Positions 21,751-57,110 of a stretch of 64,000 nucleotides of DNA are shown in pieces. Positions within the stretch are counted from its first letter, which is position 1. Every line of letters begins with the position of its first letter. The DNA comes from a virus (lineage: Duplodnaviria; Caudoviricetes), in IMG/VR virus record IMGVR_UViG_3300008113_000053, positions 2,227 to 66,226 of that record. One strand, written 5' to 3'. The notes under the pieces are model-generated. The model worked only from the letters and a program-made list of their open reading frames with translations. It did no database searches and was not told the DNA's origin. The translations under genes and the position numbers were made by a program.

Positions 21751-24700
21751 ATGCAGACACGACAGCAATTAGAAGCTAAGCGTAAAAAAGAAGAAGCTGA
21801 AGCTCTGGCGAGACAAAAAGCTTTAGCACCTCAATTGCAAGCAGCTAGATCAGGAATGCCTGAATCAAAGGCTCCTATTGCTGAACTTCAAAAAGCATCT
21901 GGTAAACCATCTGCTAGAGTGTCTGCTCCATTAATTGCGACTCCTGACGGCAAAGTACAACGTGGTACACCCGAAGAGTTTAAAAAGATACACATAAAAG
22001 ACTGGGAAGAGAAGTTACGTTCAGGTGACCCTACAGTATTATCGTCTGCTAATGAATGGTTATTACAAGAAGCGCATAAAGAAAAAGCGATAGATGACAA
22101 AACGTACAACTCGCTTCAAGAACGTTTTCGGCAAATGCGCGTTGACTTAAATAAAACGTTCATTGGCGGAGTAGTAGACGGAAAGCAAGTTCCACTAGAG
22201 TGGCCTCGCACTGTATTTGACAAGACAACAAAACAATATGTACAGGAAAAGAGGCCTGTCTCTTTAGCTGATTTAATTGTTCGCAAAGGAAACAGTTGGG
22301 CGTTTATTCAACCAAAAACTACTGGTGAATTAGAAACCATCTTAAGGGCTAAATACGGAAAACGTGACGCTGTATTAGGTAAGACTAAAGCTGAAGTTGA
22401 AGAGTATCAAAGACCAAACACTCCTGCTGAAACGGCTAATATGTGGCTGGGTAGTGGATTAGGTGGTGCAGTTGGTTTTCTTAAACCCATAACAGATCAA
22501 TACGAACGTCTTGAAGATTGGGGTAGGAAGAAACTTGGAGAAGCTCCATACAAAAATCCAATTATCGCAGATGACCCAACATTAACTGGACGCAGTTTTG
22601 CGAGTAGGTTTGAAGCAGCTCGTCAAGGTACGGGCGCTGGTGTCAAATCATTTTTTGCAACACCTGCTAACTGGGCACAAAACGCAGACATTGAAATGCG
22701 AGCGAAGTCTGCCGTCCGTGATCTTGGAATTACTGATCCGGTAAAAGCGCGTGAGGAACAAGCTCGTCAGGAAGAATACTTACGCCAAAGTATTAGGGAC
22801 TTAGCGCCGGGTTCTAACCTATTGATGAGTGATTGGTTAGACAAGACGTGGAATAGATTTCCTGAGAGTGACGTTTATAACTATGGAATGATTGCTGGTG
22901 AAACAATACCAGTTGCAGTCACAGGATTACGTGCAAGCATTGGTTTAATGAATGCTACTAGCACATTAGGTGCTAGGGCACTTGCACCAGTTGGTATGGC
23001 TAACACTGGTCGGACAATAGGCTTAGTTACATCTGTTGCTGCTCCGGTTGGAGTTAGAGCTTTTAGGGATCAGTTAAGTAAGCCTAGTGATGTTTTAAAG
23101 TCATTGCAGAAAACAGGTGATGTTACACCTGCTGAGAAAATTGTACGTGGTATTGAAGCTGCGTTTGATCCAGTTGGCACTGTATTTCAGGGTGGTATGT
23201 CTCCGGGTAAAGAAGAAGCATTGTCACAAAGTGACCCTAGTGGTGCTGTTCGTGGATTTGTTTCTACTGCAACTAACTTAGGTTTGATGGCTCCCGGTGC
23301 TCCTAGTTTGTGGAATGATGTGAAGTCACAAGCTAGAGATGCGGTTAAGTTATATAACCGATCTACAGCAATCAAAGACGCTGCTGGAATTGAATCTTCT
23401 GTATTTAATAGCGCTCAACGTTTTACTAACTCTTTTGCCCGTATTGGTAGAAATGAAATTGGTAAGCGTGTTGCAATGGATCTTGGTTTTGGTGCTACAC
23501 AACCACTAGGTGTTCTTGGTGAAGCAGCATATGCACATTTCTCTGAGCGGAAACCGGGAGAAGAACGTCATTATCCAACCGCTGTAGATTATGGCCTATC
23601 CGTGTTGCATGGACTTGTTTCCTCGCGTCCCGGTAAATTTGCTCATTCGTTGATTAATGTAAATCCATTAGGTGCAATGGAACCACAGACTGCTGCAATG
23701 GACGCAGCTGTCAATATAATTAACAGGCCAGATCGACGTGTTGAACTTTTGCACGACTGGCTTGGACAAACATATGGACGCAGGTTTAACGACTACGATG
23801 TCAGATTACTGGCATCAGAAATGTCAAATGATAATCTTGGCAACATACAGCGCAGATTAGCGCACGTTGGCGGAGCACCAGACCCTGCATTTAAAAATCC
23901 AATTCATTACGTCCGTGAATTCATTAATAACCCAGATGGTTTTTCGGAAGCCACAAGGCAAAAGTACACAGATTTAATTGAAAACATGCGTGGCAATAAG
24001 GACAACAGGGACCATGAACCGGACAGTCCGTTAACTAAAGTCCGCATATTAGATGATCTCAACCCTGCAACCAAAGGTATACGCACACAAGAACTTACTG
24101 CACGATTCCTAAAAGATATTAACTTGCAAGCAGAAGCTGCTAAGTTGGCATCTAAGAATCAACCTAAGCCATCTGAGCCAGTGCAAAAGCAAGATTATTA
24201 CGGCTTGCGCATGATGGATGGGCGAGTACTGGTTTTCAATAAAGACTTATCATCCGCTCGTATTATTGAATCAGGAAACGAAGCTGACATAACTATGCTT
24301 GCTCCAAATTCATCTAGGGAGCTTGCGTCTGTTGACCCGCGAGTTGATTCTTTAGTAAGCCTTGTTGAAGGTTCAGAGCATATTCAAAATATTGTCAGGA
24401 CGTTAATTGAATCAACATTCATTAAAGACGGAAAAATACATAAGTTCTTTGGTTTAGATAAAAACGGCAATCCTATATTTGCACTTGAAGACGGCACACA
24501 CAAAACGATTAACAGGAATATTATTGGTGAATATGTAGGTGATTCAGAATTTACAAGTGCAGATGCAAAAGATGGTTTTATTCCAGCTTTAAAATATTTA
24601 GCTGAACAATCTGGCATGTCTGGAGAGGGTGAGGTTACGTCATTCCGTAAAAGTGGTGTCAACCCTCTGTATCCACATCAGCATGAAGTTGCTGTGCCTG

Positions 24701-27700
24701 ATTCTGAAAATGACACATATGGATTACGCCCAGTATTAGCAAACAACGATTGGGTTATGCATCAGTCTAACAATGGGTCAATTGTATTTACATCTAATAA
24801 CGGTATGGCGAAAGGTCGGCAATTACCTCCTATTGATGTTGCTACAGCATTAGATTTAAGTAATGAAGCAAGTGTAATTAATTACTTAAAGTCATTGAAC
24901 CCAGAAAGTGCAAGTGCTGCTGTGCCTGTTGCTTCAGGTCAAGGTGGCGTTGCCGAGCAAGGCATCATACATATTAATGACAACAAGACACTGCGTGATT
25001 TAATTGCAATTGCTAAAAGCAGTGAAAAGCTTGAGGATAAATTAGATGCCATCAAAGGCATCGTTAGCGAATATGTAAAACATGCACCTGAATGGCAAGA
25101 TGCAACTGGTGTTAAATCGGACGTACGCCAAGGAAGCATTATTGAGTCCGACGGAAAAACATATTTAGTCATTGACTCCGATGGAAATATAGCTGTTGCT
25201 AGAGATATCACAGATATTGAAGGTGCAAATCATTACATCCTGTCCGGTGATGCAATTAATACTAACGCCGTAAGGCATGACGTACTAGAGCGCATTTTTA
25301 ATGATCACAACATTGGTGGCGTAGACCGATCGATGATTCGGCCTGTGTCATCTGGTACGACAGACCTTGAAAGAGCTATGGCTGAGGCTATGCTCACAAT
25401 GTCTACTGGGGCTGACGTTTATTTATTTCATGAGGTTGTTGACGCAAGCCATGAAGATTTACCATCTGTCCTTTTAAAGATTGCAACGCAAGATCACGCA
25501 GACTATCTTGATTTATATAAATCACTCGTAGTGTCTTTGTCGGCTTGGATTGATAACAATCCTGAATTAGCTCACATGAGTTATGTTGCTGCAGCAAAAG
25601 CATTCAATGAGTTGATACCAACAATTGATGTAACATCATCAACCAATAGCGGTAAGTTACAGCAAGCCTATCACCTATTGCGTTTATCAAACTTTAATCC
25701 TGAAATTGAATCTGCTATTACAAATGCAGAAACAAGGCTTGGTTCTGCTCCTGAGCCTACTGGATCTGAGCCAATTGATGTTACTGTGTTCTCTAGAACT
25801 GGAGCGCCACGCACGACAAGAACAACTGAAGCACAGGCGTTAATTGTCAATGCTGCATTAGGACTAAATCGTGCTTTGCTTGGCGGTGGCGACGTATCTC
25901 CAGAGCGTATGAACCGAGAGCTTACTAGGATATTTAAACTTTATCCATCACTAGAAGCAAATAAAGAAGCAGCGCAAGCAAAAATCTTAGAACTCGCTGG
26001 GTTACTTAGAAGTGTACACCCGCTTATTTACTCTAAGGTACTTGGCTCACCACGTATGTGGATGATTAATAAATTCTCTGGATTACCAGCTGAAATTCAA
26101 GCGTTAGCTGCGGTCCTTCCTGAACGTGGGCCTGAAAACTTAGTAGGCCCTAACCCAATACTTGCAACTGAAGCTGGATACACAGCAGCGTTGGAGAAAG
26201 TCCGTAGTACTTACAATATAGAAAAGACACTTGGTACGCTAGATGATTTTAAACAAGAACTGTATCAAAGTGGGTTAGGATTTTTCTGGGAGGTTGTACA
26301 CAATCCAGAATATCTAGCAAATCAATCATCTGAGCGATCTGCAATAGCAAATGACATTAGACGAGCACGTGTGTTTAATGACACCAAGGCCGACTCTTTG
26401 ACACAGATGTTAGTGAACAGCGCTACGGCTGTATATGTGGACACAATTAAAAAGTTGGCTCAAAACCAATCTCTTCCAGCTGATCAACAAACGTTGGTTA
26501 ATCTGGGTGATGCAGTTATTGCGCAAAAATATGTTGACATGGAAGCTGCTCAACAACAACTTACAGGCACCGAGCTGATGTTGTCTGGGTCACCTACGAG
26601 TCAAGAGCAGTCTGCTTTAAGTTTGGCAGAAGCTCAAGCTACATTAGCAGACGTGGCAGAAACTTTAGGTAGAGTTGGAAGTGACATTGCATTAGTTGAT
26701 GCATCACAGCAATTTGGCGTAGGCACTATTGATAATGGCACAGGTCAAGAAATCGGAACAGGACTTACTTTAGCCAAAGAAAAAAGTATTGAAAAAGCGA
26801 CGTTTGACGCTTATTCAAAGCTTACTGATAAAGAAAAAATCGACGTAATTTTATTTAACGGTGCTTGGCCAACAATAAGTGGCTTAATGAGTGAGGCCAT
26901 CCGATCTGGCGATGCGGGTGTGCATGACTCATTGCTATCTGTGATTGCAGAACTTGCCAGTGGTGAAGTCGAATATCCCATGTTGATGTTTATGGGTGAT
27001 CCAAGTGCATATAATCAATTTAAAAACGACGTTAATGTTGTTAGGCAATATGTCAAAAATGCAAGCGCAATTGTTGGTAGTGGTGCAGATATACATGGGA
27101 CTGTCCGTAATAGAGCAATTGCAACATTACGCAGAATATTAGCTACAGACATACCTATTGATGGAAGTAACGTAGATAATGTCAAAGCTTGGTTGAATTT
27201 TCAAAATCTATTTTTAAAAGCATTTACAAGTAGGGTTTTAGAGGCGCACGTTACTGGCGCATCAAAGAATTTGAAAGTAGCTCAAAACACCATTATTGAA
27301 TTAGAACGACAAAACAGAAATTTACTTGATGTAGTTCGCATGGCATCACTTGCTCAAGACGCAAATATGGGCCTTGAAGAATACATGAAGTTGTCTAAAG
27401 ATGTTACTGGTGCCGTAATTAACTTTATGGGATTTGAATTCTCTGCTGGAGAGAGTATGTTAATTTCTGATGCAGTTCAAGCATTAATTAGCACTTTTAC
27501 ACCAGCAGAATTAGCGGCTCCCGGAGCAGCACGAGACTTAGTTGAACGAGCTGCGGAATTAGAACAAGCAATAGTTACAGCTGGTGGTGATATGCGTTCG
27601 TTGGTTGACTCACAAGGTCAAGCAAATGTTACAGTGGTTGAGTATGACAGAGGAGCACTAGGTCGAGACATATCTATTGCTGATCCAAATGCACCTCAAG

Positions 27701-30700
27701 CAACAAAAGTTAATTTACTGAGGGCGAATAATAGAGCAGGACTTGAAAAACTATTCCTGTCCATGATGTGGGGCGAAGCAGCTAACGACAATCCAGTAGA
27801 TGTGACAATTTTAGATGCTATAGCTGGAAAGTTTGAAGAGTCACAACAACTTAAACAATTAACTGAAACGCGAAATCTGCAGACTAAATTCCGCAAAGTG
27901 TTTTTACCGTCACAAGACAGTACTTTTGAGGTAGCTGTCATGCCGGGTAGCGGAAGAGTGCATAGGACAAACCGATCTTCCGAAGACCTTGTTAACGGAC
28001 AAGTGTTTTTTAATAGTGTGTACGAGCAGGGTATAGCTGCAACCAAAAGCGATCCTGTCAAACAACGTAAGTTTATTGATGCAATGAATGCGTTATATAA
28101 CGACGGTAAAAGTGGTGACACCTCTAAGATATCAATGAAGATGTTACAAGAAGTGTTATCTGCCATTGGGTTGCGCTCGTCATCCTTCATGGCAAAAACA
28201 AATCTTGGCAACACGTTTGTTATTGGTATGGATTCACGAAGTCAATACTTTGCCCCATACATGATCACAACAATGTTGACAGCTATGGATGTTCAAGGAA
28301 AGGTGCGTGTTACTGCTGACCCAACAACTCCAAAGCCTCCCGTGTATGACGTAAGGGATCAAATACAGGGGGATGAAGTTAATTACGATCGTTCTGTAGC
28401 AAATAACTTGTCTAAATTCTCTATCTTCTCTACGCCAGAAGATATGTCGAAAATGACAGTAGAGCAACTTGAAGACATGGTTAAGTATTACAATCTTATT
28501 GTAAATAAAAATTCCTTGTCTTTAAATGCTACTGATTTAGCTAAAGCAAAACAGATTAGAGATGCGTATCAATCTGTGTTGTCTGAATATGGTGCCAATA
28601 AAAAGGCACGTGATGTATCTGCTGTAACAACTGTAGTTACAAATAAAGCTAATGCTATTGAGGTCGCTCGGCAATTAGCAAAACTGTATGACATTTATTC
28701 ATTAAGTCAAGCCGAACGTGACATGGAAGCAGATATAGATTTAAACACTGCGTCTGCTCGTTCTGAGTACTTGGCATTAATGGCCCTAGCACGTATAGAC
28801 TCATCGATCATTGAACAATTTGCAATGAACAATGCATCTATTGCGTCTATGACGAAAGGCAAAATAATTGGCCCAGACAATACTGAGACTGTATTACTGT
28901 CACCAGAACAGTTATTACGTTTACGCAGTTTGCGTTTAGCTCAGCTACAACAAAATTTCTACAATCAGGACAATCAGTTGTTTGCGACTATGCAACAACA
29001 CTTGATGGACACTTCAAACTTAAGCCATCGTGATAACCCTGAACAAGGTGAATACATTTATGGCATGACTCGCGAACTTGGTCGTACAGACGATGCTGTA
29101 GCTAGACTTTTATACATTGCATCAAAGAAGGGTTTTGACCGAACAGCACACACTATTGCCCATGAAGTGTCTCACGTATTGTTCTTGTCTTTACCTGACT
29201 ACATGCAGGTTGAATATTTAAAAGCTGTAATGCCTGAGAAAGGTACTGAGGGAGCTGATGAGAAAATTCAACCAGCAATGGCGGATGCGTACAAATTAAT
29301 TAAAAGTGCTTCTGACGCATACGCGTTGCATATTAATCAAGGTGGCAGCAAGCATACATTTAAATTAAAAAACACATCCGGTTGGGATGGCTGGGGAACA
29401 GTATTACATGAAATGACTGCAACGTCATTTGTCAACTTCCTAACCCATGATGGTGTTGTTTATTCCGGTGGAGCAGAAAAAAGCCGAGCTGACAATGTCA
29501 CTGCTGTATTACATAACTTAGGTAATGTGTTGCGTCCAATAGCTGAGCGGTTAGGAACTGCAAGCGCTGGAAACATTGTCATGCAAGACGGCAATGCTAT
29601 GAATGCATATTTCTTAGATCCAGCTGCTGTTAAATATCAATCAACGGTTGAAAACGGTAATGAACGAACATTTTATCCGTTGCAACATTACAGTTGGTTG
29701 AACTTTACTGTTCATCACCAACGTGATGCGTCTGGTGCATTGCGTAGTGTTACACCGTTTGACATGATGGGATTGGTTGATGCTAACAATCCATTTATGA
29801 AAAAGATGTTTGGTGGTAATTACGACAGAGTCAAGTCATTGCTAAATAAGGGTGGAGTTGTATTAGATAGCTCACTTCAGGTTGGTAGATTTATTAACAA
29901 CTCATCCATTGCAACTGAACTTGCATCTGGCCAACGTGCTACCGGGCGTGTTGTCGGCATGGTCATGTCCACAGATTATGTGACACAGCAAGAAGCACAG
30001 CAAGCTGGTGCCAAATATGCTTTTACCATGAAGAATGCAAAAGGCAAAGATGTCATTTGGATTGATGTAAGTAATGACAATAACAAAATGACTTGGTATA
30101 AGCTTCAGTTTGAAGGAAAAGGCAAGTTTAGAAAAGGCCAGCAGCGTTCTGGTAAAAAAGATTACATGTACATTGTCGAGACTACTGGCGACATTAACAT
30201 GTATGAAAAAGACGGTGATCGCCACAAGTTAATGACTGATGGCAAAATGAAACAACAAAAGGTTCGTATCCTTGTTGGGCATGACGCATTTTCAGTGGAA
30301 GACAAATTAGCCAAACCTTATATTGTGTCTACTGGAAAAATTAATACACCGCAGTTTAATAACGTTGTTTACTCAATGCTTGCTCGTGTTGATAAGAGCC
30401 TGACAGAAATGTCGGGACAGTTAAACTATGATCATCAGCAAGGTTTGATTCAGTCCTTAGCAAAAGAATATGCTGGTGTAGAAGAAGGGTCTTTTACTAA
30501 TGTGTATGGTGCAAACTTATACAATTTAGTACAGGATCAAAGTTTAAATATTGGACAGCGTATAGCTAACGCAGATAAGACTAATTTGTCAGCACAATCA
30601 ATTGCTGCCGTCGATCCGTGGGTTCGTTACAAATACAACAACACTCAGTTCAGGTTAAGGTTTACAGAGTTATTACCAGAATTAGGAACCGATGCATTAG

Positions 30701-33700
30701 ATTTACTAAGTTCGTTTTTATACGGTCAGCGTCAAAATATGATGACTCCAGATGGCCGTTTAAGCACATGGCACAGAGCTGTGCCAGTGAAATATAAGCT
30801 TGGATTCTCGCAGAGCACTGCAAACTCAGATAAGTTGTTGACTCAGTGGATGGTCAATAAATTTACTAGTCTGAATGAAATCCAGAATTTTATAACATCT
30901 ATTAAAGATGCTGTTGTTGCAGCACGTAATTCCGGTGAAACTACTATTACAGTTCCAGATCCAATACTACAAATGGAAGGCACATCTATAGATGTGTCAT
31001 CTATTATTAATGGAATGTTCAGTCCAGACATGACTGACAATGAAATTAACGCAACGGCTCAAATTATTGAGAAATTTGGGACAGACTATTTAATTAAATT
31101 GTGGGCCAGCACTGGAAGTAATGGACTAGCTCAACTGTTTGAGGCGTTTAATCATTCAAAGGTAAACTTACAGCCTCTTATCTATCCTTCTACTATGCCT
31201 ACTACATTTGAAAAAGACGGCATTGTGTATGATGTTAAATCTGCTATTGATAAAGTCTTTAATCTTGCGTTAGACCCAACTACTGTTCGTAATTACGTTG
31301 GTCAAAATTTACGTGGAGGCCCAAACACGCAAGCTGCTGAAATCACATCTACTAGAAATTTAGATATAGCAAATCAGGCTGTTCTCTATCACATTATGAC
31401 TAAGGTATTTAGAGACCAACAGAGTCAAGTCAAGTTTATGAAAGACCTGTTGCGTGTAGGTCATACAGACAATAACACTACTCAGCAACTGGATCACATT
31501 AATGCATTGAATATGTTTAATGTAGTGAGTCATATCTTTGCAACAGATTCGCGTTTACGCACAGCTACTCAACGCAACTGGAATGACTCTAAGATCATTG
31601 ACATTAATGGCGATGATGTCATATTTGAAATACCTGATCGTGATATTGCGATTGCAGCTCCTCAGACTGAACAAGGTTCTGTTGTTAGAGTCAATCTTAA
31701 GACTGGTGTTTCTGAATATGTTGTTAAAACTAAAAAGTTAATTAACGGCGAAATTGTTGATAGGTGGGAGCCAGCGCAGAGCGTTGACAAAATGTATGGC
31801 TACAATGCCACATCTCGTCCTAATGATCCAATGCCTAGCACTGCACAGCCATGGACAACTAAGGCTAATGGACAGAGGTATACATCCGAACAGATGTTTG
31901 GTGGTGACCGAAAGGCAGCTGAGGTACTTAAATCTATTCTTGGCCAAAATGAAATGAGCAGACTGGTAACTGATGAAAATTACAGCACAGTAATTTTGTT
32001 ACCAAACGTCGATGCATTTAAAACTGGTTCTACGGAACAGGTTGCCAACAAGGGCATTAGTGCTTGGTCAGTCAGTTTTAATAAGGATACTGGTTGGAGT
32101 TTTAAAGAGCAAAACAGCTGGTGGAATGAGGCTGGTAATCCACGGTCACAGAATTTAAACGCTTTACTTAAAGCGGCAATGCCTTCTACATTAAGTGATC
32201 AAACACGGGAAGGTATTACTAAACTGCGTGTATTAAATGAGGAGTATCACATAGCTAAACTATTGGTCGCTCGTGAGGCCGTAAAGAAAAGTGATTTATA
32301 CAAAAAGCTTGGCGGTGGAGCACGTGAGCAACTATTCCCAGTAGCAGACCGAACTATTATGGGTGATATCTCTGGTGATACTTGGTATAGCAAATCACCA
32401 ACTGGTATGGAGGCACCTGAGCCTGAATCAACATTGGATTACGTGTCAGATATTGAGTTAGTTAAGGGCGGTGAGTCTGACTATCCAACTTTAAATGCAT
32501 TCTGGAAAGCAAAAATTACCGATGAAGTTATTGGTCACGCTGAAGCAAATGCACCAAATGAATTAGTGATTTACAAAGATCCTAATTTACAAAATGGACT
32601 TGGTAAGACACTGCAAGGTAAGCGAGTTACCTTAAATGTTGGGCCAGAAATGTGGCCAATTGTTGATGAGATTATGAAGAGTAGGAAACTACCTCTCGTC
32701 AATGCTAATGAAGCAATATCAATGGATATGGATGAAGGCTTGACCTTATTCTCTAAGACTCCATTTGAGCATGCAGTTGGAGGCGTAAAAGCAATTGGTC
32801 AATTTGGTCAATATATTTTAGGGTTTGACTTATCAACAATTGGAATTCAAGGTGCCAGACGCGCAATGAATGATCCACTTGGTGCAGTATGGGCGCTAAC
32901 TTACTCACTGCCTTCCATGGTCATGTTGAGCCGTGATAACCTTCCATTTTTTGCTGGATATGCTGCTGACTTGATATTGCGTGGATCTAGATATAACGCT
33001 AAGTGGACTCTATTAGGTAATGCTTATTATGAGATGGCAATGGAAGCAATGTTAAAGCATGTCAACCTTGCAAATAAAAGTAATTACACAATGGCCGAGC
33101 TTGCTGAGCTTGGATGGAAAAGTGATTATTATGACTGGAAAACAAAACACGCATTAAACAGAATGAAGGATCCTAGTAAATATAAAGCCTTAATGGATAC
33201 ACCGTTTGAAGTTGATGATGAATTTATCAGTGGTGCAGCTAAACATTTTGTTGGCATTAGTGGGCGATGGGATCAAACTCGTTTGTTGTGGCGTGATTTA
33301 TTCTCGCTTAAGCAAGCTGTTGACAACATGGAATTGGCTGAAGGTCGCAAGCGTTTTAATGTGTTTGAAAAACAGCAGCAAAATTACCGTAAAAATCACG
33401 AAATACGACGAGATAAGCGAGCTTTGCTTTTAGATTTAGCATTAGACATGGGTTTAACTAAGTTCTCTAGATCGAGGATGCAAGCCCCATTGCTTAGCGC
33501 GTTTGGGCAGGTGTGGAATTCTCTTGAAACTGCACCGGGGTACAACAGGTCATTTATTCACGGTATGAACCTTGATGTATTCCATGGTGCAAAAACTCGT
33601 GTTAACGGCGCATATATGAGGCTTATGCGAAATGGCCCTAAGTTTCTAAGAGGAAATTTATTTGACACAGATTTCTCTGATTACTACACAACTACTAGAA

Positions 33701-34758
33701 CTCCATTGTCTAGCTGGGCAAAAGAATCTAGATTGCGAGCACAGGTTGCCACGTATCTAACAATTGGCGCATTAATGATTGCTAACTCTAAAAGACTATG
33801 GGATCAGGAACACGAAAAAGAAGCTTTTGACTGGAGAGAATTTACTGTTTATGGCTTAAAGAATTTTGGATATATTGCTATGTCACCAACAGAGACTATA
33901 GGTATAGCACCATTTACAAAACTTGGTGGATTATTACGACCTGTTGCAACATTATTAGAGCCATCGGAAAGTACTGTAGGTTCTAAGGCAAATGCAATTG
34001 GAAAATCTATACTTGATTCATATGTAATAAACAGGTGGAACAGTTTATCTCAAGCAACGTATGCTGCATTGACTGGAACATCTTATGGTAATCGCCCTTC
34101 ATTCTCACGTAATGAGGGAATGGCAATAGCTGCAGCTAATCAACTGCGACCTCCGCTAATGTTTAGGACATTGCAGGACATTGCTCCAGTTCAGAGTAAT
34201 TTCTTAAGCAATTTTTCAAACTATACATTTGTACAGGCATGGTATGAAGATTTAGCTAAGTATGCTGCTGCTCAGTCAATACCAGAAGAAGAGATTGCTA
34301 ATTTAGGACAATTAGATACAGCACTGGCTAAAGCTCCAGTTATTAGCAATGAAGAGGCGATGCGAATATTCTGGAAGGGATACATGATTCGCATGCTAGG
34401 CTTTGGATATTACGTTGACCCAGAAAAATTCCAGCGCAAAATGGATTTCAAACTTGACCTTGGATTGGCAAGTGCTACCGTTAAGCGCTTGTCTTATCTC
34501 GAACGTGGATGGTGGAAATATGCAACTATTAAAGATGCGTTAGCAGACAGTCGCGGTTTAACAAACGTCATTGAAGGGTTTGAAGAAAAAGAATTTAGAC
34601 GAATGACTCTGCTAGGCTTTGTGCCAGAATCCGCTAAAAAGTATGGAACGAAAATACCATTGAGAGATCGTGAATTACCACTTGGAGCTAACGCTGAAAA
34701 AGCACGTGAGCAACAGAAAATGCAAGATTCTATTAATGGTGAGGGCGAACAGGAGTAA
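21751..34758 (+). CDS. Giant (4335 aa) internal virion/polyvalent protein with zincin-like metallopeptidase motif
   Basis: Uninterrupted 13-kb ORF with AAGGA RBS; TIAHEVSHVLF (HExxH, about 29152-29184) and downstream VLHEMTATSF; occupies the large-ejection-protein slot. Confidence 0.7.
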   Translation: MQTRQQLEAKRKKEEAEALARQKALAPQLQAARSGMPESKAPIAELQKASGKPSARVSAPLIATPDGKVQRGTPEEFKKIHIKDWEEKLRSGDPTVLSSANEWLLQEAHKEKAIDDKTYNSLQERFRQMRVDLNKTFIGGVVDGKQVPLEWPRTVFDKTTKQYVQEKRPVSLADLIVRKGNSWAFIQPKTTGELETILRAKYGKRDAVLGKTKAEVEEYQRPNTPAETANMWLGSGLGGAVGFLKPITDQYERLEDWGRKKLGEAPYKNPIIADDPTLTGRSFASRFEAARQGTGAGVKSFFATPANWAQNADIEMRAKSAVRDLGITDPVKAREEQARQEEYLRQSIRDLAPGSNLLMSDWLDKTWNRFPESDVYNYGMIAGETIPVAVTGLRASIGLMNATSTLGARALAPVGMANTGRTIGLVTSVAAPVGVRAFRDQLSKPSDVLKSLQKTGDVTPAEKIVRGIEAAFDPVGTVFQGGMSPGKEEALSQSDPSGAVRGFVSTATNLGLMAPGAPSLWNDVKSQARDAVKLYNRSTAIKDAAGIESSVFNSAQRFTNSFARIGRNEIGKRVAMDLGFGATQPLGVLGEAAYAHFSERKPGEERHYPTAVDYGLSVLHGLVSSRPGKFAHSLINVNPLGAMEPQTAAMDAAVNIINRPDRRVELLHDWLGQTYGRRFNDYDVRLLASEMSNDNLGNIQRRLAHVGGAPDPAFKNPIHYVREFINNPDGFSEATRQKYTDLIENMRGNKDNRDHEPDSPLTKVRILDDLNPATKGIRTQELTARFLKDINLQAEAAKLASKNQPKPSEPVQKQDYYGLRMMDGRVLVFNKDLSSARIIESGNEADITMLAPNSSRELASVDPRVDSLVSLVEGSEHIQNIVRTLIESTFIKDGKIHKFFGLDKNGNPIFALEDGTHKTINRNIIGEYVGDSEFTSADAKDGFIPALKYLAEQSGMSGEGEVTSFRKSGVNPLYPHQHEVAVPDSENDTYGLRPVLANNDWVMHQSNNGSIVFTSNNGMAKGRQLPPIDVATALDLSNEASVINYLKSLNPESASAAVPVASGQGGVAEQGIIHINDNKTLRDLIAIAKSSEKLEDKLDAIKGIVSEYVKHAPEWQDATGVKSDVRQGSIIESDGKTYLVIDSDGNIAVARDITDIEGANHYILSGDAINTNAVRHDVLERIFNDHNIGGVDRSMIRPVSSGTTDLERAMAEAMLTMSTGADVYLFHEVVDASHEDLPSVLLKIATQDHADYLDLYKSLVVSLSAWIDNNPELAHMSYVAAAKAFNELIPTIDVTSSTNSGKLQQAYHLLRLSNFNPEIESAITNAETRLGSAPEPTGSEPIDVTVFSRTGAPRTTRTTEAQALIVNAALGLNRALLGGGDVSPERMNRELTRIFKLYPSLEANKEAAQAKILELAGLLRSVHPLIYSKVLGSPRMWMINKFSGLPAEIQALAAVLPERGPENLVGPNPILATEAGYTAALEKVRSTYNIEKTLGTLDDFKQELYQSGLGFFWEVVHNPEYLANQSSERSAIANDIRRARVFNDTKADSLTQMLVNSATAVYVDTIKKLAQNQSLPADQQTLVNLGDAVIAQKYVDMEAAQQQLTGTELMLSGSPTSQEQSALSLAEAQATLADVAETLGRVGSDIALVDASQQFGVGTIDNGTGQEIGTGLTLAKEKSIEKATFDAYSKLTDKEKIDVILFNGAWPTISGLMSEAIRSGDAGVHDSLLSVIAELASGEVEYPMLMFMGDPSAYNQFKNDVNVVRQYVKNASAIVGSGADIHGTVRNRAIATLRRILATDIPIDGSNVDNVKAWLNFQNLFLKAFTSRVLEAHVTGASKNLKVAQNTIIELERQNRNLLDVVRMASLAQDANMGLEEYMKLSKDVTGAVINFMGFEFSAGESMLISDAVQALISTFTPAELAAPGAARDLVERAAELEQAIVTAGGDMRSLVDSQGQANVTVVEYDRGALGRDISIADPNAPQATKVNLLRANNRAGLEKLFLSMMWGEAANDNPVDVTILDAIAGKFEESQQLKQLTETRNLQTKFRKVFLPSQDSTFEVAVMPGSGRVHRTNRSSEDLVNGQVFFNSVYEQGIAATKSDPVKQRKFIDAMNALYNDGKSGDTSKISMKMLQEVLSAIGLRSSSFMAKTNLGNTFVIGMDSRSQYFAPYMITTMLTAMDVQGKVRVTADPTTPKPPVYDVRDQIQGDEVNYDRSVANNLSKFSIFSTPEDMSKMTVEQLEDMVKYYNLIVNKNSLSLNATDLAKAKQIRDAYQSVLSEYGANKKARDVSAVTTVVTNKANAIEVARQLAKLYDIYSLSQAERDMEADIDLNTASARSEYLALMALARIDSSIIEQFAMNNASIASMTKGKIIGPDNTETVLLSPEQLLRLRSLRLAQLQQNFYNQDNQLFATMQQHLMDTSNLSHRDNPEQGEYIYGMTRELGRTDDAVARLLYIASKKGFDRTAHTIAHEVSHVLFLSLPDYMQVEYLKAVMPEKGTEGADEKIQPAMADAYKLIKSASDAYALHINQGGSKHTFKLKNTSGWDGWGTVLHEMTATSFVNFLTHDGVVYSGGAEKSRADNVTAVLHNLGNVLRPIAERLGTASAGNIVMQDGNAMNAYFLDPAAVKYQSTVENGNERTFYPLQHYSWLNFTVHHQRDASGALRSVTPFDMMGLVDANNPFMKKMFGGNYDRVKSLLNKGGVVLDSSLQVGRFINNSSIATELASGQRATGRVVGMVMSTDYVTQQEAQQAGAKYAFTMKNAKGKDVIWIDVSNDNNKMTWYKLQFEGKGKFRKGQQRSGKKDYMYIVETTGDINMYEKDGDRHKLMTDGKMKQQKVRILVGHDAFSVEDKLAKPYIVSTGKINTPQFNNVVYSMLARVDKSLTEMSGQLNYDHQQGLIQSLAKEYAGVEEGSFTNVYGANLYNLVQDQSLNIGQRIANADKTNLSAQSIAAVDPWVRYKYNNTQFRLRFTELLPELGTDALDLLSSFLYGQRQNMMTPDGRLSTWHRAVPVKYKLGFSQSTANSDKLLTQWMVNKFTSLNEIQNFITSIKDAVVAARNSGETTITVPDPILQMEGTSIDVSSIINGMFSPDMTDNEINATAQIIEKFGTDYLIKLWASTGSNGLAQLFEAFNHSKVNLQPLIYPSTMPTTFEKDGIVYDVKSAIDKVFNLALDPTTVRNYVGQNLRGGPNTQAAEITSTRNLDIANQAVLYHIMTKVFRDQQSQVKFMKDLLRVGHTDNNTTQQLDHINALNMFNVVSHIFATDSRLRTATQRNWNDSKIIDINGDDVIFEIPDRDIAIAAPQTEQGSVVRVNLKTGVSEYVVKTKKLINGEIVDRWEPAQSVDKMYGYNATSRPNDPMPSTAQPWTTKANGQRYTSEQMFGGDRKAAEVLKSILGQNEMSRLVTDENYSTVILLPNVDAFKTGSTEQVANKGISAWSVSFNKDTGWSFKEQNSWWNEAGNPRSQNLNALLKAAMPSTLSDQTREGITKLRVLNEEYHIAKLLVAREAVKKSDLYKKLGGGAREQLFPVADRTIMGDISGDTWYSKSPTGMEAPEPESTLDYVSDIELVKGGESDYPTLNAFWKAKITDEVIGHAEANAPNELVIYKDPNLQNGLGKTLQGKRVTLNVGPEMWPIVDEIMKSRKLPLVNANEAISMDMDEGLTLFSKTPFEHAVGGVKAIGQFGQYILGFDLSTIGIQGARRAMNDPLGAVWALTYSLPSMVMLSRDNLPFFAGYAADLILRGSRYNAKWTLLGNAYYEMAMEAMLKHVNLANKSNYTMAELAELGWKSDYYDWKTKHALNRMKDPSKYKALMDTPFEVDDEFISGAAKHFVGISGRWDQTRLLWRDLFSLKQAVDNMELAEGRKRFNVFEKQQQNYRKNHEIRRDKRALLLDLALDMGLTKFSRSRMQAPLLSAFGQVWNSLETAPGYNRSFIHGMNLDVFHGAKTRVNGAYMRLMRNGPKFLRGNLFDTDFSDYYTTTRTPLSSWAKESRLRAQVATYLTIGALMIANSKRLWDQEHEKEAFDWREFTVYGLKNFGYIAMSPTETIGIAPFTKLGGLLRPVATLLEPSESTVGSKANAIGKSILDSYVINRWNSLSQATYAALTGTSYGNRPSFSRNEGMAIAAANQLRPPLMFRTLQDIAPVQSNFLSNFSNYTFVQAWYEDLAKYAAAQSIPEEEIANLGQLDTALAKAPVISNEEAMRIFWKGYMIRMLGFGYYVDPEKFQRKMDFKLDLGLASATVKRLSYLERGWWKYATIKDALADSRGLTNVIEGFEEKEFRRMTLLGFVPESAKKYGTKIPLRDRELPLGANAEKAREQQKMQDSINGEGEQE

Positions 34759-46162: not shown

Positions 46163-46409
46163 CGTAATATTCCTTTGTTTCTAATTCGTACAGTTTGTTG
46201 TTTTCTACTTGAATAGCATCAATGATACGAGCTGCATAAAACACATCAACTCGTTGGTCATTCTCTGCTTCTAACTCATCAGAACATGGACCACCTTCTA
46301 GATTCGTGCATGAACACATGGTGTGTCCATACTTGCATGGCGGAAATGAGTAGTTTGGGCAATCACGATATACGTGATGCTTAATATATTCAGCTGTTCC
46401 TGCTGTCAT
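46152..46409 (-). CDS. Small Cys-rich hypothetical protein
   Basis: AAGGA RBS before MTAGTAE; five Cys. Confidence 0.55.
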   Translation of the reverse strand: MTAGTAEYIKHHVYRDCPNYSFPPCKYGHTMCSCTNLEGGPCSDELEAENDQRVDVFYAARIIDAIQVENNKLYELETKEYYDGE

Positions 46410-46623
46410 TATGTTTTTCCTTAGCTTTGTTGATGTACTCTGCAACCTGATGAAAGTCTAAATTGTATGTTATTGAATCCATATCTATATGTTCATCTGG
46501 TGTGATTAATGCGCATTCAAACAACTTTTCGTTATCATCATAACTAACGAGTTGTTTGCAATTAATATGTATTTCATATCCATCATTAAGTTTGATTCTG
46601 CGCTCATACCATTGTCGATACAT
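46390..46623 (-). CDS. Hypothetical early protein (pseudoknot leader)
   Basis: ATG 14 nt after repeat copy 1. Confidence 0.6.
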   Translation of the reverse strand: MYRQWYERRIKLNDGYEIHINCKQLVSYDDNEKLFECALITPDEHIDMDSITYNLDFHQVAEYINKAKEKHNDSRNS

Positions 46624-46637
46624 TGTGTTCTCTTTCT

Positions 46638-46666
46638 GTGCGTTGTTAGTGAGACGCACCCCTCAC
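46638..46666 (-). ncRNA. cis-RNA H-type pseudoknot, copy 1
   Basis: GTGAG-GG-GTGCGT-CTCAC-TAACA-ACGCAC. Confidence 0.7.
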
Positions 46667-46672
46667 ATTTGA

Positions 46673-47164
46673 TTAATCCTTGAGGGTCAATCTCTGGTGG
46701 TTACGAACACAAGTCTTCCTCACCTGACCTTCAAAGTCTGGCATTGCAGTAGCCACATACTTCCAGAAGTCAAAGGCAATAATCGGCAACTTGACATCAA
46801 TGATGACTCTTTCCAGTGTCTGGATTGCCTCATCAATCTGCTCTTCAAGAGTCTCGCTGTTAAGCTGAACCTTGATGATCTTATTCATAAATGACGATGT
46901 TTCACGGCTATCCTTGTCAGGACGCAATGTCATAGTCACTTCAATTTGAACAAGAGGAATAGGATGAAGAGTCTTCTCTTCACCATTAGCTACGTCCATA
47001 CGCAGCTTGTACTCCATTGATATGTGATGCCCGTTGAGTTCAACAGTCTCTGTATGTGATGTTGTATGGTAGCCACCATACGAGTACAGTGTGCCGTCTG
47101 CTACTTTAGCAGGAACAGCGAGAAGAGCTTCGCGGAAATACTTTGTGTACAATTCGATAGACAT
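46673..47164 (-). CDS. Hypothetical early protein (pseudoknot leader)
   Basis: 163 aa between repeat copies 1 and 2. Confidence 0.7.
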   Translation of the reverse strand: MSIELYTKYFREALLAVPAKVADGTLYSYGGYHTTSHTETVELNGHHISMEYKLRMDVANGEEKTLHPIPLVQIEVTMTLRPDKDSRETSSFMNKIIKVQLNSETLEEQIDEAIQTLERVIIDVKLPIIAFDFWKYVATAMPDFEGQVRKTCVRNHQRLTLKD

Positions 47165-47180
47165 GATTATGTTTCTTTCT

Positions 47181-47209
47181 GTGCGTTGTTAGTGAGACGC
47201 ACCCCTCAC
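47181..47209 (-). ncRNA. cis-RNA H-type pseudoknot, copy 2
   Basis: Identical to copy 1. Confidence 0.7.
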
Positions 47210-47216
47210 ACAAACA

Positions 47217-47471
47217 TTAGATAGCGATCTTAGCTTCAGTGAAACTCTTGAGGTTACACTCTTTTGTTAGGTAGGTAATGATGTTATTGCAATCATCTTG
47301 CTCAAGGTTCAGTAACACTTCAGACATGTCAAGTAAAACCCAGTTGACATCGTCTTGTTTATCTTTAAAGATTTCCCACATATGGTTGTAATGATCTTTA
47401 GTTATCAAGTTTTCTTCGAGTAGTTCTTCAAGAACTAAGGAACCCATTACTACATCCCAGTCGCATTTCAT
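47217..47471 (-). CDS. Hypothetical early protein
   Basis: Acidic 84 aa; abuts upstream gene. Confidence 0.6.
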   Translation of the reverse strand: MKCDWDVVMGSLVLEELLEENLITKDHYNHMWEIFKDKQDDVNWVLLDMSEVLLNLEQDDCNNIITYLTKECNLKSFTEAKIAI

Positions 47472-47720
47472 TTAAAACACTTTCCTTCTACTAGTGATTG
47501 GTTTATCAGTCACGATGTTCATGTAAACGATTCCGTATGGTTTAAACTCATACGTATGCTCTAAACATCGCGAGATTCTTATATGCATAATTGTTGGATC
47601 ACAGTAAACATGAAGTCCAGCAATTTTTTGTGCAGCCCATGCATTTGTATAAACATCAGGAAGGCCAATTGCTTGGCCTTGAAAGTCATACTGTTGATTG
47701 TGATAGGTATACCTAGGCAC
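47472..47720 (-). CDS. Hypothetical early protein
   Basis: GGAGGAGGT RBS before GTG. Confidence 0.6.
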   Translation of the reverse strand: MPRYTYHNQQYDFQGQAIGLPDVYTNAWAAQKIAGLHVYCDPTIMHIRISRCLEHTYEFKPYGIVYMNIVTDKPITSRRKVF

Positions 47721-48036
47721 TTGTGTCTACCTCCTCCCATCCAGTAGGTCGTGGCATGGGGGTGATTGCTGATATCCATTTGTCGAATAGTTCGCGCTCA
47801 CGTTGTGTTGGCTCGAATCCAAGCCAGTCATCAAATCCAGCTGCATTGCGTGTATCGTGAGGCACGTGTGCTTCAGCAAAATCTAACAACTCAGCTAAGT
47901 TTTCACGAGCAGCTCGATCAAGTTTATGTTGAAAGCCGGGACGCAACTTAATTAAGCCTTCAAAACCACCACCGGGATGGATGTGGTTGTAAGCAAAGTT
48001 AAGGATAAGTCGGCGATAGTGTGTAAGATCTGTCAT
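47713..48036 (-). CDS. Hypothetical early protein (pseudoknot leader)
   Basis: ATG 14 nt after repeat copy 3. Confidence 0.65.
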   Translation of the reverse strand: MTDLTHYRRLILNFAYNHIHPGGGFEGLIKLRPGFQHKLDRAARENLAELLDFAEAHVPHDTRNAAGFDDWLGFEPTQRERELFDKWISAITPMPRPTGWEEVDTSA

Positions 48037-48050
48037 TGTGTTTCTCTTTC

Positions 48051-48079
48051 ATGCGTTGTCAGTGAGACGCATCCCTCAC
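48051..48079 (-). ncRNA. cis-RNA H-type pseudoknot, copy 3 (compensatory variant)
   Basis: GTGAG-GG-ATGCGT-CTCAC-TGACA-ACGCAT. Confidence 0.7.
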
Positions 48080-48085
48080 ATGTAA

Positions 48086-48484
48086 CTAAGGAACGATTAC
48101 GATTCCGTGTACTTCAGCTGCTTTAAGCTGATACACAGTCTCAACAAAATCACTCATCCATTCACGCAGTTGCATGAACGTGTACTGCATTTCGGTGTCA
48201 TCACTTGTATACAGAACATTGATCTCATCAAGATAACCTGTTGTATATAACTTCCAACGTCCATCGTGAATCATTATGTTGATAGTGAATACAAATGCAG
48301 CCATGCGTTCATGGTGCATGCTTAGTCGTGCTTCAAGCGTCCCATTAATAACAACTCGATGTTTAGTGCGACCATTTTCGCTGTTATGAAACTCAACGCC
48401 TGTAATTAATTCGTTTGAAGCTTTTTCGTATGTTTGAATTACTTTACGAGCCAGCTCGCTGGCATTAATAATTTGCTTATTCAT
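48086..48484 (-). CDS. Hypothetical early protein
   Basis: 132 aa; leader contains CACAGAAAGA like the repeat tail. Confidence 0.65.
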   Translation of the reverse strand: MNKQIINASELARKVIQTYEKASNELITGVEFHNSENGRTKHRVVINGTLEARLSMHHERMAAFVFTINIMIHDGRWKLYTTGYLDEINVLYTSDDTEMQYTFMQLREWMSDFVETVYQLKAAEVHGIVIVP

Positions 48485-48524: not shown

Positions 48525-48553
48525 AAAAAACCATCCTGCTAAAAACAGGATGG
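48525..48553 (-). terminator. Intrinsic terminator
   Basis: CCATCCTG-TTTTTAG-CAGGATGG followed by T6. Confidence 0.7.
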
Positions 48554-49174: not shown

Positions 49175-49239
49175 TGAGGGTAGTAACTTTTACTACCCTC
49201 ACCCTAGTAATTTTTACTACCCTAGTAAAATTTACACCC
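49175..49239. repeat. Cluster of three TAGTAA-N3-TTAC(TA) palindromes
   Basis: tgagggtagtaa-ctt-ttactaccctca, then ccctagtaatttttacta, then ccctagtaaaatttacaccc. Confidence 0.7.
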
Positions 49240-49580
49240 TACCCTTCGTCTGGTTTGCGCAGTTGAATGCGGTGCAAAACATGGGCTGCAGATTGAATTA
49301 CAAGTAACTCACTCTGTGTAATTTGCATGCGATCAACGATAAGTTTGTACATTTTGGCAAGGTTACCTGCGCCCATATTCCAAACCCACGTTGCTGTCTT
49401 GATGCCAGCCATGGAAGCCAACTCATCGTTGGTGCAGTGTCGATGTATGAACTGCATAGCATCCATTGTTGTGGTGTCAAGCATCTCTGCTTGAACTTCT
49501 GCCTTGTCAAGAATGCCATGACGAATCATGGCCTTGATCTGCGCAGCACTCAACTTATTTGTGTCAATTGTTTTCTTCAA
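49239..49580 (-). CDS. Hypothetical early protein
   Basis: GAAGGT RBS before TTG. Confidence 0.6.
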   Translation of the reverse strand: MKKTIDTNKLSAAQIKAMIRHGILDKAEVQAEMLDTTTMDAMQFIHRHCTNDELASMAGIKTATWVWNMGAGNLAKMYKLIVDRMQITQSELLVIQSAAHVLHRIQLRKPDEG

Positions 49581-50916: not shown

Positions 50917-50958
50917 AAAAAAAAGGAGGAGAGGAAAGCCTAAGCCCTCCTCCCCTCC
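50917..50958 (-). terminator. Intrinsic terminator
   Basis: 15-bp stem GGAGGGGAGGAGGGC/GCTTTCCTCTCCTCC (G-U pairs valid only on minus strand) followed by T8. Confidence 0.7.
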
Positions 50959-50961
50959 AGT

Positions 50962-51426
50962 TTAAATCGCACCAATCAAACCTTCCTCGCCTTCAACGAG
51001 GTATTCCCACCATCCGTCAACGAACTCAGGGATTTGTGCGATGACGTACTTGCGTCCGCCTCCCTCAATGGTGATGTTGCCATCAGCTCCAACGAGCCAC
51101 ATGTTTTCATCCCAGCGTCCGCGTGTTTTATGCCCGGTGGCAGTCCACTCAATGCCGTAGGCAATGAATGTAGCAGTGCCCTCGTAAGACACAGTGGTTC
51201 CACTAGGGCAGTGTCCACCCTTGTTGATGACTCCATTGGCGATTGCGAGTTGTACCAAGTCGCGCATCTCAGCACGGGATATGGCTAATGCTGCAAGTTG
51301 AAGTGAAGTATCAATGTTAATGCTACGCATCCATTCCCACCGACGCTTGCGTACAAGCTCAAGGTGGTCTTGGCGAGCATATAATTGCTCCCTCCATTGT
51401 TCATCGGCTGTCTTCTCTTGTGTCAT
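50962..51426 (-). CDS. Hypothetical early protein
   Basis: GAGGAGG RBS, TAATG coupling. Confidence 0.65.
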   Translation of the reverse strand: MTQEKTADEQWREQLYARQDHLELVRKRRWEWMRSINIDTSLQLAALAISRAEMRDLVQLAIANGVINKGGHCPSGTTVSYEGTATFIAYGIEWTATGHKTRGRWDENMWLVGADGNITIEGGGRKYVIAQIPEFVDGWWEYLVEGEEGLIGAI

Positions 51427-56720: not shown

Positions 56721-57110
56721 GTGCTTAATCATGTTACATTAATCGGAAGGCTAGTTGCTGACCCAGAAACAAGATCCACGCCTAATGGAAAGTCTGTTTG
56801 TAGTATTCGTATTGCTGTGGATCGTAAAGGCCGAGAGAAGGAGACTGATTTTTTCAGCTGTACGGCTTTTGGTCAAACTGGCGACGCGCTTGGTACATAT
56901 GCTCAAAAGGGTCGCTTAATTGCTATTACAGGCAAGATTCAATTAGATAATTACATAAACAAGGATGGCGTAAAGCAGCAGTCAGTTAAAGTGCTTGTTG
57001 ACGGATGGAACTTACTGGATTCACGTAAAGAGCAGGATTCAGTAGCTCCAAACCCTAAACCAGCCGGAAAACTACAGGTAGACGATATTGATGATCCGTT
57101 TGCAGATTAA
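56721..57110 (+). CDS. ssb: Single-stranded DNA-binding protein
   Basis: LNHVTLIGRLVADPETR, ETDFF, acidic DIDDPFAD tail. Confidence 0.95.
   Translation: MLNHVTLIGRLVADPETRSTPNGKSVCSIRIAVDRKGREKETDFFSCTAFGQTGDALGTYAQKGRLIAITGKIQLDNYINKDGVKQQSVKVLVDGWNLLDSRKEQDSVAPNPKPAGKLQVDDIDDPFAD

Follow-up and report, generated by a model that had tools for sequence, protein, structure and literature searches.

A predicted 29-nucleotide pseudoknot behind the stop codons of unrelated phages

Known compact pseudoknots and the element of this window

The pseudoknot upstream of gene 32 in the phages T4 and T2 is a compact H-type fold with coaxial stems, a very short first loop (L1) and an A-rich crossing loop. 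In the pseudoknots of luteoviruses (the beet western yellows virus class) a first stem (S1) of 5 base pairs (bp) is combined with an L1 of 2 nucleotides (nt), one extruded base and an A-rich third loop (L3), of which an ACAA-type run lies in the minor groove of S1. Here I describe an element of 29 nt, predicted to fold in this manner, which occurs three times on the minus strand of a 64,000-nt stretch of phage DNA from the IMG/VR record IMGVR_UViG_3300008113_000053; this whole stretch is called the window below. The element directly follows stop codons in the window as well as in a large number of unrelated phages, and the comparison of these sequences indicates that it is a genuine, strongly selected RNA pseudoknot.

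With the gene 32 operator the element shares the compact H-type geometry and the location in a phage mRNA leader. However, the operator is a single site upstream of the gene for the single-stranded DNA-binding protein (SSB) that it regulates, where it nucleates the cooperative binding of gp32, whereas here three to four copies are found after unrelated genes. The SSB gene of the window (56721-57110, plus strand; phrog_44, E 3e-38) has no copy of the element nearby, and where another group of phages does have the element beside an SSB-like gene, it is located downstream of that gene. The element has no sequence relationship to the gene 32 pseudoknot. From the latter an unstructured A/U-rich tract leads to the ribosome-binding site; the tract behind the element is A/G-rich and 14-16 nt long in the window, and AGGAGG or hairpins take its place in the relatives. 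The first-pass annotation of this DNA had pointed to the gene 32 geometry and proposed a translation operator or enhancer, or a 5' nuclease block; an operator of the gene 32 type is not supported, as the SSB gene lacks a copy and the downstream partners of the element are heterogeneous.

The likeness to the luteovirus pseudoknots extends to the 5-bp S1, the 2-nt L1, a junction of one base, the ACAA in L3 and even the spacing of 5-8 nt from the A-site codon. However, frameshifting pseudoknots have a slippery heptamer 5-9 nt upstream and an overlapping ORF in the -1 frame, whereas here a stop codon is located 5-8 nt upstream, no open reading frame (ORF) is recoded, and the second stem (S2) is 5 bp long and invariant. 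No heptamer of the form X XXY YYZ is present at the three copies of the window, and in-frame read-through of the first of these copies meets a stop codon inside L3. Read-through or frameshift ORFs were considered and dropped, as stops follow at once.

The preQ1-I aptamer resembles the element in size, H-type topology, a covarying first stem (P1), a conserved second stem (P2) and loops, an A-rich 3' tail and a Shine-Dalgarno (SD) sequence at the 3' edge. A conserved nucleotide in the junction loop of this aptamer pairs with the ligand; in the element, however, position 13 varies, the Rfam PreQ1 model is not matched at E<=10, and there is no link to queuosine genes. Repeated intercistronic structures that set processing or stability boundaries are known as well, namely the RNase III sites in the early region of T7 and the hairpins related to repetitive extragenic palindromes. 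These are alike in that structured elements are repeated between the cistrons of one transcript, but those structures, either extended duplexes or plain hairpins, have no invariant loops, whereas here the unit is a 29-nt pseudoknot with an invariant S2 and invariant loops, common to unrelated phages. The repeats of ToxI-like type III antitoxins lie in tandem, head to tail, beside an endoribonuclease toxin gene, whereas ORFs separate the copies in the window. For a solitary CRISPR-repeat-like unit, pairing between an 8-nt loop and the 3' tail would be atypical.

A cmscan search of the window against Rfam 15 finds only tRNAs, the same search at the gathering score finds nothing at the element in 16 other loci, and even at E<=10 the region 46580-46720 gives only two unrelated weak matches. 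No published description was found in full-text literature searches, by concept or by sequence fragment, although such a motif could be listed in the supplementary files of phage RNA surveys (e.g. PMC10690425). The first-pass annotation recognised no named family either, which is borne out by these searches, and the motif appears undescribed.

Copies, relatives and covariation

The three copies are located at 46638-46666 (copy 1), 47181-47209 (copy 2) and 48051-48079 (copy 3), all on the minus strand, 543 and 870 nt apart and with ORFs in between. Copies 1 and 2 are both the 29-mer GTGAGGGGTGCGTCTCACTAACAACGCAC, an exact match to the core that scores 51 bits with the covariance model R1. Copy 3, at 44.1 bits, differs from it at three positions, two of which are the partners of the outer S2 pair (A-U for G-C) and the third of which is base 20 in L3, here a G. 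In 100 dinucleotide-preserving shuffles the number of matches expected by chance is 0, and a fourth copy is absent from the window, where the next-best match to the model reaches 9.2 bits. Each copy follows a stop codon after 6, 7 and 6 nt, respectively, and precedes an ATG (46623, 47164 and 48036) by 14, 16 and 14 nt. The base directly 3' of the element, position 30, is a conserved purine (A at 46637, A at 47180 and G at 48050, minus strand), and the linkers are (A)GAAAGA-type purine tracts, in copy 1 the purine-rich AGAAAGAGAACACA at 46624-46637 (minus strand) up to the ATG at 46623, and equivalent linkers at 47165-47180 and 48037-48050 (minus strand). The number, strand and coordinates of the copies, the paired change of copy 3, the spacers and the purine tract had all been reported at first pass, and pattern match, shuffles, covariance model and a renewed reading of the sequence agree with them.

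In the RNA of copies 1 and 2, S1 consists of GUGAG paired with CUCAC and L1 of GG, and the GUGCG of the loop can pair with the CGCAC of the tail. In the coordinates of copy 1, S1 pairs 46662-46666 with 46649-46653, L1 is 46660-46661, S2 pairs 46655-46659 with 46638-46642, the junction base is 46654 and L3 is 46643-46648. The nested folding energy of about -7 kcal/mol (-7.2) is unremarkable, with z-scores of -0.99 and -0.73 and two hairpins that are nearly isoenergetic, so that the case for structure rests on the comparison with relatives.

An exact-pattern scan of IMG/VR for the form found in the window's own family returned 35 loci. When S2 and L3 were fixed and S1 was left free, a viral scan gave 72 loci and a metagenome scan 109 listed stretches. 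S1 proved to be fully paired in 82 of the 90 matches of this viral scan, by ten different helices, and in 119 of the 138 matches of the metagenome scan (loci numbered from L099 on), while full pairing is expected by chance in about 1-2% of cases. Pooled, 261 unique contexts match the loose core, 214 of them with all five S1 pairs; these represent 21 distinct helices, and 201 contexts are entirely Watson-Crick, with a single G-U in the remaining 13. The carriers retrieved amount to at most 162 loci from virome, metagenome and genome collections, in which some records are present twice.

Covariation was assessed in an alignment (A1) of 62 distinct 29-mers of canonical length with at least four of the five S1 pairs, from which one row resembling a chance match (L158) and two that duplicate the window copies were excluded. 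Four of the five S1 pairs show double-sided changes, and the S1 covariation is 0.430 versus 0.105 in shuffled alignments, none of 500 of which reached 0.430; partners slid along the alignment give at most 0.119. S2 shows a different pattern. With S1 fixed as GTGAG and S2 left free, RTGCG...CGCAY is kept in 84 of 86 matches, the other two being unpaired chance matches, and in the S1 backgrounds CGCAG and ACGAG every row with any S2 pairing has the same S2 sequence, while the rest are unpaired. S2 is therefore invariant apart from its outer pair, 8-29, which is G-C in 174 cases, G-U in 24, A-U in 22 and A-C in one. In the outer pair of S1, 1-18, G-U likewise occurs 14 times versus twice for A-C. 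As these wobbles are confined to one strand, they point to pairing in the sense-strand RNA.

S2 variants with the same loops were not found in 1.85 Mb (both strands of the loci), nor in a covariance-model search of 100 loci, and a mismatch-tolerant scan and model searches of the fetched loci did not detect a variant of L1 or S2. In genome contigs, a pattern with a longer L3 gave 17 matches, roughly what chance predicts, two of them with a paired S1; this result bears on the longer form only. L1 (GG) and the ACAA of L3 were fixed in all scans of the collections, and the invariance of L1, S2 and ACAA is partly built into the search patterns. Position 30 is A in 91, G in 12 and T in three of 106 unique contexts, a purine in 103.

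The relatives also decide the extent of S2. The first-pass annotation had described S1 with 5 bp, L1 as GG, S2 with 6 bp, no L2 and an L3 of 5 nt; S1, L1 and the core of S2 stand, but the sixth S2 pair, 13-24, does not. Base 13 is T in 138, A in 51, C in 26 and G in six of 221 relatives, whereas A24 is constant across the 62 distinct sequences of A1. With base 13 free and A24 fixed, S2 has 5 bp, the junction 1 nt and L3 6 nt, with the consensus N-R-A-(C/A/U)-A-A. As judged from the alignments, the consensus of the element is an S1 of 5 bp of any sequence closed by G5-C14, an L1 of GG, an S2 of RUGCG/CGCAY, a junction of 1 nt, an L3 that ends in ACAA, and a purine at position 30. That this is an H-type pseudoknot with covariation, as first proposed from the window alone, is upheld by the comparison of relatives, since homologues vary while S1 pairing is kept, the outer S2 pair covaries, and wobbles are restricted to the sense strand. 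The element, a 29-nt RNA with covariation as clear as that of textbook riboswitches, is missing from Rfam 15.

One deposited and cultured phage was found to carry the element. A short-query BLAST with the CGCAG form identified Corynebacterium phage PSonyx (host C. glutamicum MB001), with a single copy at 67958-67987, in an unannotated gap where 22 nt separate it from the preceding stop of gene 128 and 34 nt from gene 129, which follows. With model R1 this copy reaches 32.5 bits; a bulge or wobble is present in its S1. At least some of the carriers thus infect Actinobacteria, which makes direct tests possible. The ACGAG form gave no match in the same kind of search, and partial matches of the family form in Synechococcus phage S-RIM2 (E=6) were rejected as chance, as they are on the strand opposite to the genes and lack S1 and L1.

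Position, gene linkage and possible roles

The distance from stop codon to element is narrowly distributed: where an ORF precedes the element (107 contexts), it is 5-8 nt in 90 cases and no more than 14 nt in 105, whereas the distance from element to start codon in the same contexts spans 8-42 nt. The element is placed just outside the footprint of the terminating ribosome, so that it is not unwound by a ribosome at the stop. What follows is variable. The window's family accounts for 150 of the 214 fully paired contexts; in 85 of these a purine or SD tract abuts the element and a start codon follows within 20 nt, 57 have other linkers, and eight have no ORF or are truncated. Among the other 64 contexts, an ORF follows in 24 (in nine with an AGGAGG-type SD directly after the element), a tRNA in six and a tRNA-like RNA in 23, while 11 are unresolved or truncated. 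No ORF follows the element in the loci L106 and L186, where AGGAGG and a terminator-like hairpin come next. The use of (A)GAAAGA instead of a strong SD, pointed out at first pass, is correct for the window copies but is not a general trait, since AGGAGG abuts the element in many relatives; the weak SD is a feature local to the window. As there is no anti-SD inside the element, sequestration of the SD by the element itself is impossible.

The codon before the element is TGA in only three of 107 contexts, versus 22-31% of the background ORFs of these genomes. This rarity may be real, reflecting a context used by release factor 1 only, or it may be a by-product of few gene families and of ATGA overlaps elsewhere. 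I do not claim a depletion, because the independent upstream gene families are few and overlapping ATGA junctions bias the background.

The tRNAs were called by ARAGORN in six contexts from five loci. They begin 3-4 nt past the element in L042, L044, L171 and L207, and about 100-170 nt past it for the two copies of L116. In five of these six contexts, from four loci (L044, L171, L207 and L116), the tRNA closest to the element is Asn(GUU), and in one it is Thr; by eye, L150 is a further case, with a tRNA 4 nt past the element, and a fifth locus with Asn(GUU). The tRNA-like RNA begins 3-7 nt past the element, in a group of loci whose genes are ordered Sak4-like, SSB-like, primase, with the element between the latter two. 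RNAalifold predicts for this RNA an acceptor-like stem and a T-arm, with compensatory changes in 13 of 19 pairs, while ARAGORN and Rfam make no call.

Several further observations concern these contexts. The tRNA-like RNA is found at L036:2262-2385, L048:4931-5054 (minus) and 12 more loci (alignment A3), with a GGTTCGAnTCC T-arm and a long central hairpin, the CU-rich loop of which (CCUCCU-like) could pair with the SD region of the primase gene downstream by complementarity. Strong hairpins with CU-rich, anti-SD-like loops are also present in the approximately 30 nt upstream of the element in L171, L207, L042 and L116, where a tRNA follows; L116 has its two copies at a distance of 73 nt from each other, in front of the tRNA-Asn. 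Two carrier contigs encode a tmRNA (L052:4559-4953 and L053:3166-3522), and another has two type II hammerhead ribozymes (L076:7193-7256 and 7512-7575, minus) on the same strand as its pseudoknot.

For gene linkage, the ORFs on the strand of the element were clustered and the clusters mapped to the genes of the window. The element follows the stop codon in 52 of 52 members of the 84-amino-acid (aa) cluster, 58 of 59 of the 163-aa cluster, 27 of 28 of the 132-aa cluster and 42 of 42 of the SSB-like gene of the other phage group. It precedes the start codon of the 163-aa core gene in 57 of 57 cases, this gene having copies on both sides, but in the larger downstream families (at least 12 eligible instances) the corresponding counts are 9/55, 10/36, 19/37, 13/19, 9/12 and 17/22, the first of these belonging to the 107-aa cluster and the fourth to the 77-aa cluster. 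The element is tied more closely to the gene before it than to the gene after it. At the element a given upstream gene may have different downstream neighbours, and a given downstream gene different upstream ones; variable gene slots thus have a copy of the element at their 5' border, and this identical sequence of about 30 nt at several junctions probably acts as a crossover point for the exchange of accessory genes. The carriers are unrelated phages with no large protein in common, and when the window genome was compared with the other carrier loci by BLAST, a DUF1281_C/Api92-like protein and SSB were the only candidate regulators in common. The suggestion that the copies mark out putative early genes downstream for joint regulation, as with gene 32, is not supported, as the distance to the stop codon is the tightest constraint, downstream families are often without the element, and tRNAs or terminators may follow. 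This positional logic, after stop codons, before ORFs, tRNAs or tRNA-like RNAs, and at the borders of accessory gene slots, is unlike that of known phage operators.

The element is a portable module of phage polycistronic transcripts that is indifferent to what follows it. As to what this module does, I tentatively favour, at somewhat less than an even chance, an autonomous and mechanically stable punctuation mark or insulator of polycistronic mRNA. The element would be a compact, stable fold that works alone, with its loops placed in the grooves of the stems. It could block exonucleases or scanning RNases at the cistron boundary, capping the 3' side of the upstream cistron, which would be most relevant where RNase P cuts 3-7 nt downstream, at tRNAs and tRNA-like RNAs, and would otherwise expose the upstream mRNA. 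It could also prevent upstream coding RNA from pairing with the next ribosome-binding site or structured RNA, and would leave the adjoining SD or purine tract single-stranded. The geometry suggests a triplex of loops and grooves, with L1 in the major groove of S2 and L3 in the minor groove of S1, by analogy with the luteovirus pseudoknots, which owe their stability to such triples; these would explain an invariant S2 and L1 without any binding partner. If the element does act as an autonomous insulator or stabiliser, it would be a natural minimal part for building polycistronic constructs.

Several points weigh against this reading. It is not obvious why a plain roadblock should keep S2 and the loops invariant in phages that differ widely in G+C content, a pattern that is equally expected from a specific binding partner or ligand, and the triplex that would account for it is itself proposed from geometry and by analogy with the luteovirus structures. 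The pattern-free checks of invariance cover S2 in three S1 backgrounds and the model search of 100 loci, and the linkage counts include related contigs and duplicate records, so that they are not independent. Furthermore, the window shows no evident cleavage site or terminator by which the element would come to lie at a 3' end.

Of the alternatives, a translation enhancer or operator of the downstream gene survives best, although I consider it rather unlikely. Placed at the 5' edge of the SD, the pseudoknot would stack on the helix of SD and anti-SD, provide a standby or S1 docking site for the ribosome, or bind a conserved protein through which these genes are switched jointly, a partner that the invariant loops would suit. 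The abutting purine or SD tracts point in this direction, being located 0-2 nt past the element with a start within 20 nt in 85 of the 150 family contexts and in nine of the 64 others, with some contexts reading CGCAC-A-GGAGG, and the tisB mRNA is reported to have a pseudoknot-dependent standby site (PMC7708055). However, a tRNA or tRNA-like RNA lies downstream in 29 of the 64 non-family contexts and a terminator-like hairpin in L106/L186, the distance to the start is loose (8-42 nt), downstream families are often without the element (9/55, 10/36 and 19/37, as given above), and the DUF1281_C/Api92-like protein and SSB were the only regulator candidates shared among the carriers in the BLAST comparison.

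The invariant S2 and loops could alternatively form an aptamer for a universally conserved host machine, either the ribosome at the stop codon or the elongating RNA polymerase, or the element could be the smallest natural self-cleaving RNA; this I regard as unlikely. As an aptamer, the element would be a portable device that needs no phage protein, by which unrelated phages could reprogram ribosome recycling or re-initiation, Rho access, or termination after translation stops. An element that binds a host machine or ligand would represent a new regulatory class.

The three copies in front of small ORFs also recall phage N4, and here a DNA hairpin promoter, in which the repeat is extruded and a specialised RNA polymerase recognises the conserved loop and tail and starts transcription at the purine at position 30, is an improbable explanation. 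N4 has three early promoters with hairpins whose stems need only pair beside conserved nucleotides, the hairpin being formed in the template strand with a stem of 5-7 bp, a loop of 3 nt and conservation from -17 to +1 (PMC4496689). In the element, too, conservation is found in the loop and flank and covariation in the stem, nearly all contexts have a purine at position 30 (the 103 of 106 given above), and the downstream content is free, be it an SD, a tRNA or a tRNA-like RNA. However, the 5-bp stem encloses a loop of 8 nt, not 3, there is a second helix, and the complementarity and covariation of S2 would have no role in such a promoter. The wobbles are on the sense strand (G-T 24 versus A-C 1, and 14 versus 2) and would be A-C mismatches on the template strand, where the N4 hairpin acts. 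The window does encode an orphan protein of 4335 aa (21751-34758, plus strand), for which a very distant relationship to virion RNA polymerases is possible, but no such polymerase was detected in it by Pfam, PHROG or PDB-sequence matches or by ordered T7-like motifs. Its only three close homologues in 5.8 billion proteins are themselves orphans, and the language-model leads, which are weak (<=0.84), point to 'large polyvalent protein' domains. A large protein shared by the unrelated carriers is lacking as well.

An antiterminator similar to put or nut RNA, which would act on the transcribing RNA polymerase or on Rho and make it resist termination through the following untranslated or poorly translated stretch, is improbable to the same degree. 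It would account for a location directly after stops and ahead of untranslated RNA, such as tRNAs, the tRNA-like leader of at least 100 nt and hairpin-containing leaders, its invariant nucleotides would fit a universally conserved host target, and terminator-like hairpins follow downstream on the same strand of the window, at 44424-44403 and 43074-43050. The untranslated gap in the window is only about 50 nt, however, what seems to be the final terminator of the operon follows the element in L106/L186, and the put and boxB families of Rfam are not similar to the element. The 3' strand of S1 and L3 have a partial likeness to boxA, but the bases concerned fall in covarying, paired positions; this likeness, as well as an AUG-UGA start-stop at the 5' edge, was dropped because the bases are not conserved outside the family.

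The element might also be a processing signal that cuts the polycistronic RNA at each copy, although this is very unlikely, either as a very small self-cleaving ribozyme or as the target of a conserved host RNase, in the latter case as a pseudoknot resembling an acceptor stem, whose first pair is G-C and which has a discriminator-like A. Catalytic cores, and cores recognised by an enzyme, are typically invariant in this way, the base that follows the element is conserved, the element adjoins the RNase P sites of tRNAs and tRNA-like RNAs, and one carrier contig (L076) has hammerhead ribozymes. Yet no self-cleaving class as small as 29 nt is known, Rfam finds no ribozyme family match, and there is no equivalent of the T-loop for RNase P. 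Finally, a riboswitch-like sensor, a pseudoknot aptamer of preQ1-I size through which a small molecule modulates the adjoining SD, is highly improbable: the covarying P1, the invariant loops and P2, an SD that abuts the 3' strand and the Asn(GUU) tRNA nearest downstream in five of six tRNA contexts, which is a queuosine tRNA, would fit, but no riboswitch model matches at E<=10, the junction base expected to pair with the ligand varies freely, no alternative pairing could occlude the SD, and the downstream genes have no pathway in common.

Genome setting and neighbouring genes

The window comprises bases 2227-66226 of a 66,226-bp contig with a G+C content of 41.5%. An exact terminal repeat of 114 bp (contig 1-114 and 66113-66226) indicates a circularly closed assembly. 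The phage genes encoded include those for a portal, a terminase, a DnaB-like helicase, an O-like initiator, a Gam-like protein, SSB, thymidylate synthase and dUTPase, and the window carries two tRNAs. BLAST of the 2.2-kb region with the element, in near and distant mode, gave no match among 50,697 deposited phage records.

The three copies lie among consecutive small ORFs of the minus strand, which are situated upstream of the replication genes. In the direction of transcription, the ORF of 132 aa (48086-48484) ends 6 nt before copy 3, which is followed by the ORF of 107 aa (47713-48036). The 84-aa ORF (47217-47471) ends 7 nt before copy 2, the 163-aa ORF (46673-47164) lies between copy 2 and copy 1 with its stop 6 nt before the latter, and the 77-aa ORF (46390-46623), beginning with the ATG at 46623, lies downstream of copy 1. 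No family match was found for the ORFs preceded by the three copies. The AlphaFold model of the 163-aa protein (pLDDT 91.3) shows a four-stranded sheet packed by helices. An identity as a protein like the hibernation-promoting factor HPF (Pfam S30AE, E 0.007, below the cut-off) was rejected, as the model, despite its confidence, has no fold match in the PDB; the best candidate, CapZ, was not significant (E 0.02, TM 0.36), and a PDB-sequence profile search gave nothing relevant.

Other features of the window deserve mention. An ORF that leaves its right end continues over the contig join, where it encodes 1729 aa in total and stops before the terminase gene. On the minus strand, an intergenic spacer of approximately 120 nt (49190-49260) contains three direct TACTAGGGT(A/G) repeats and one inverted copy, and may be the operator or promoter region of the operon of small ORFs. 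A terminator-like hairpin at 48531-48553 (minus strand) lies inside the ORF of a small membrane protein and may not terminate. A very strong terminator-like hairpin, with 15 pairs and T8, is located at 50925-50958 (minus strand), after the ORF at 50962-51426.

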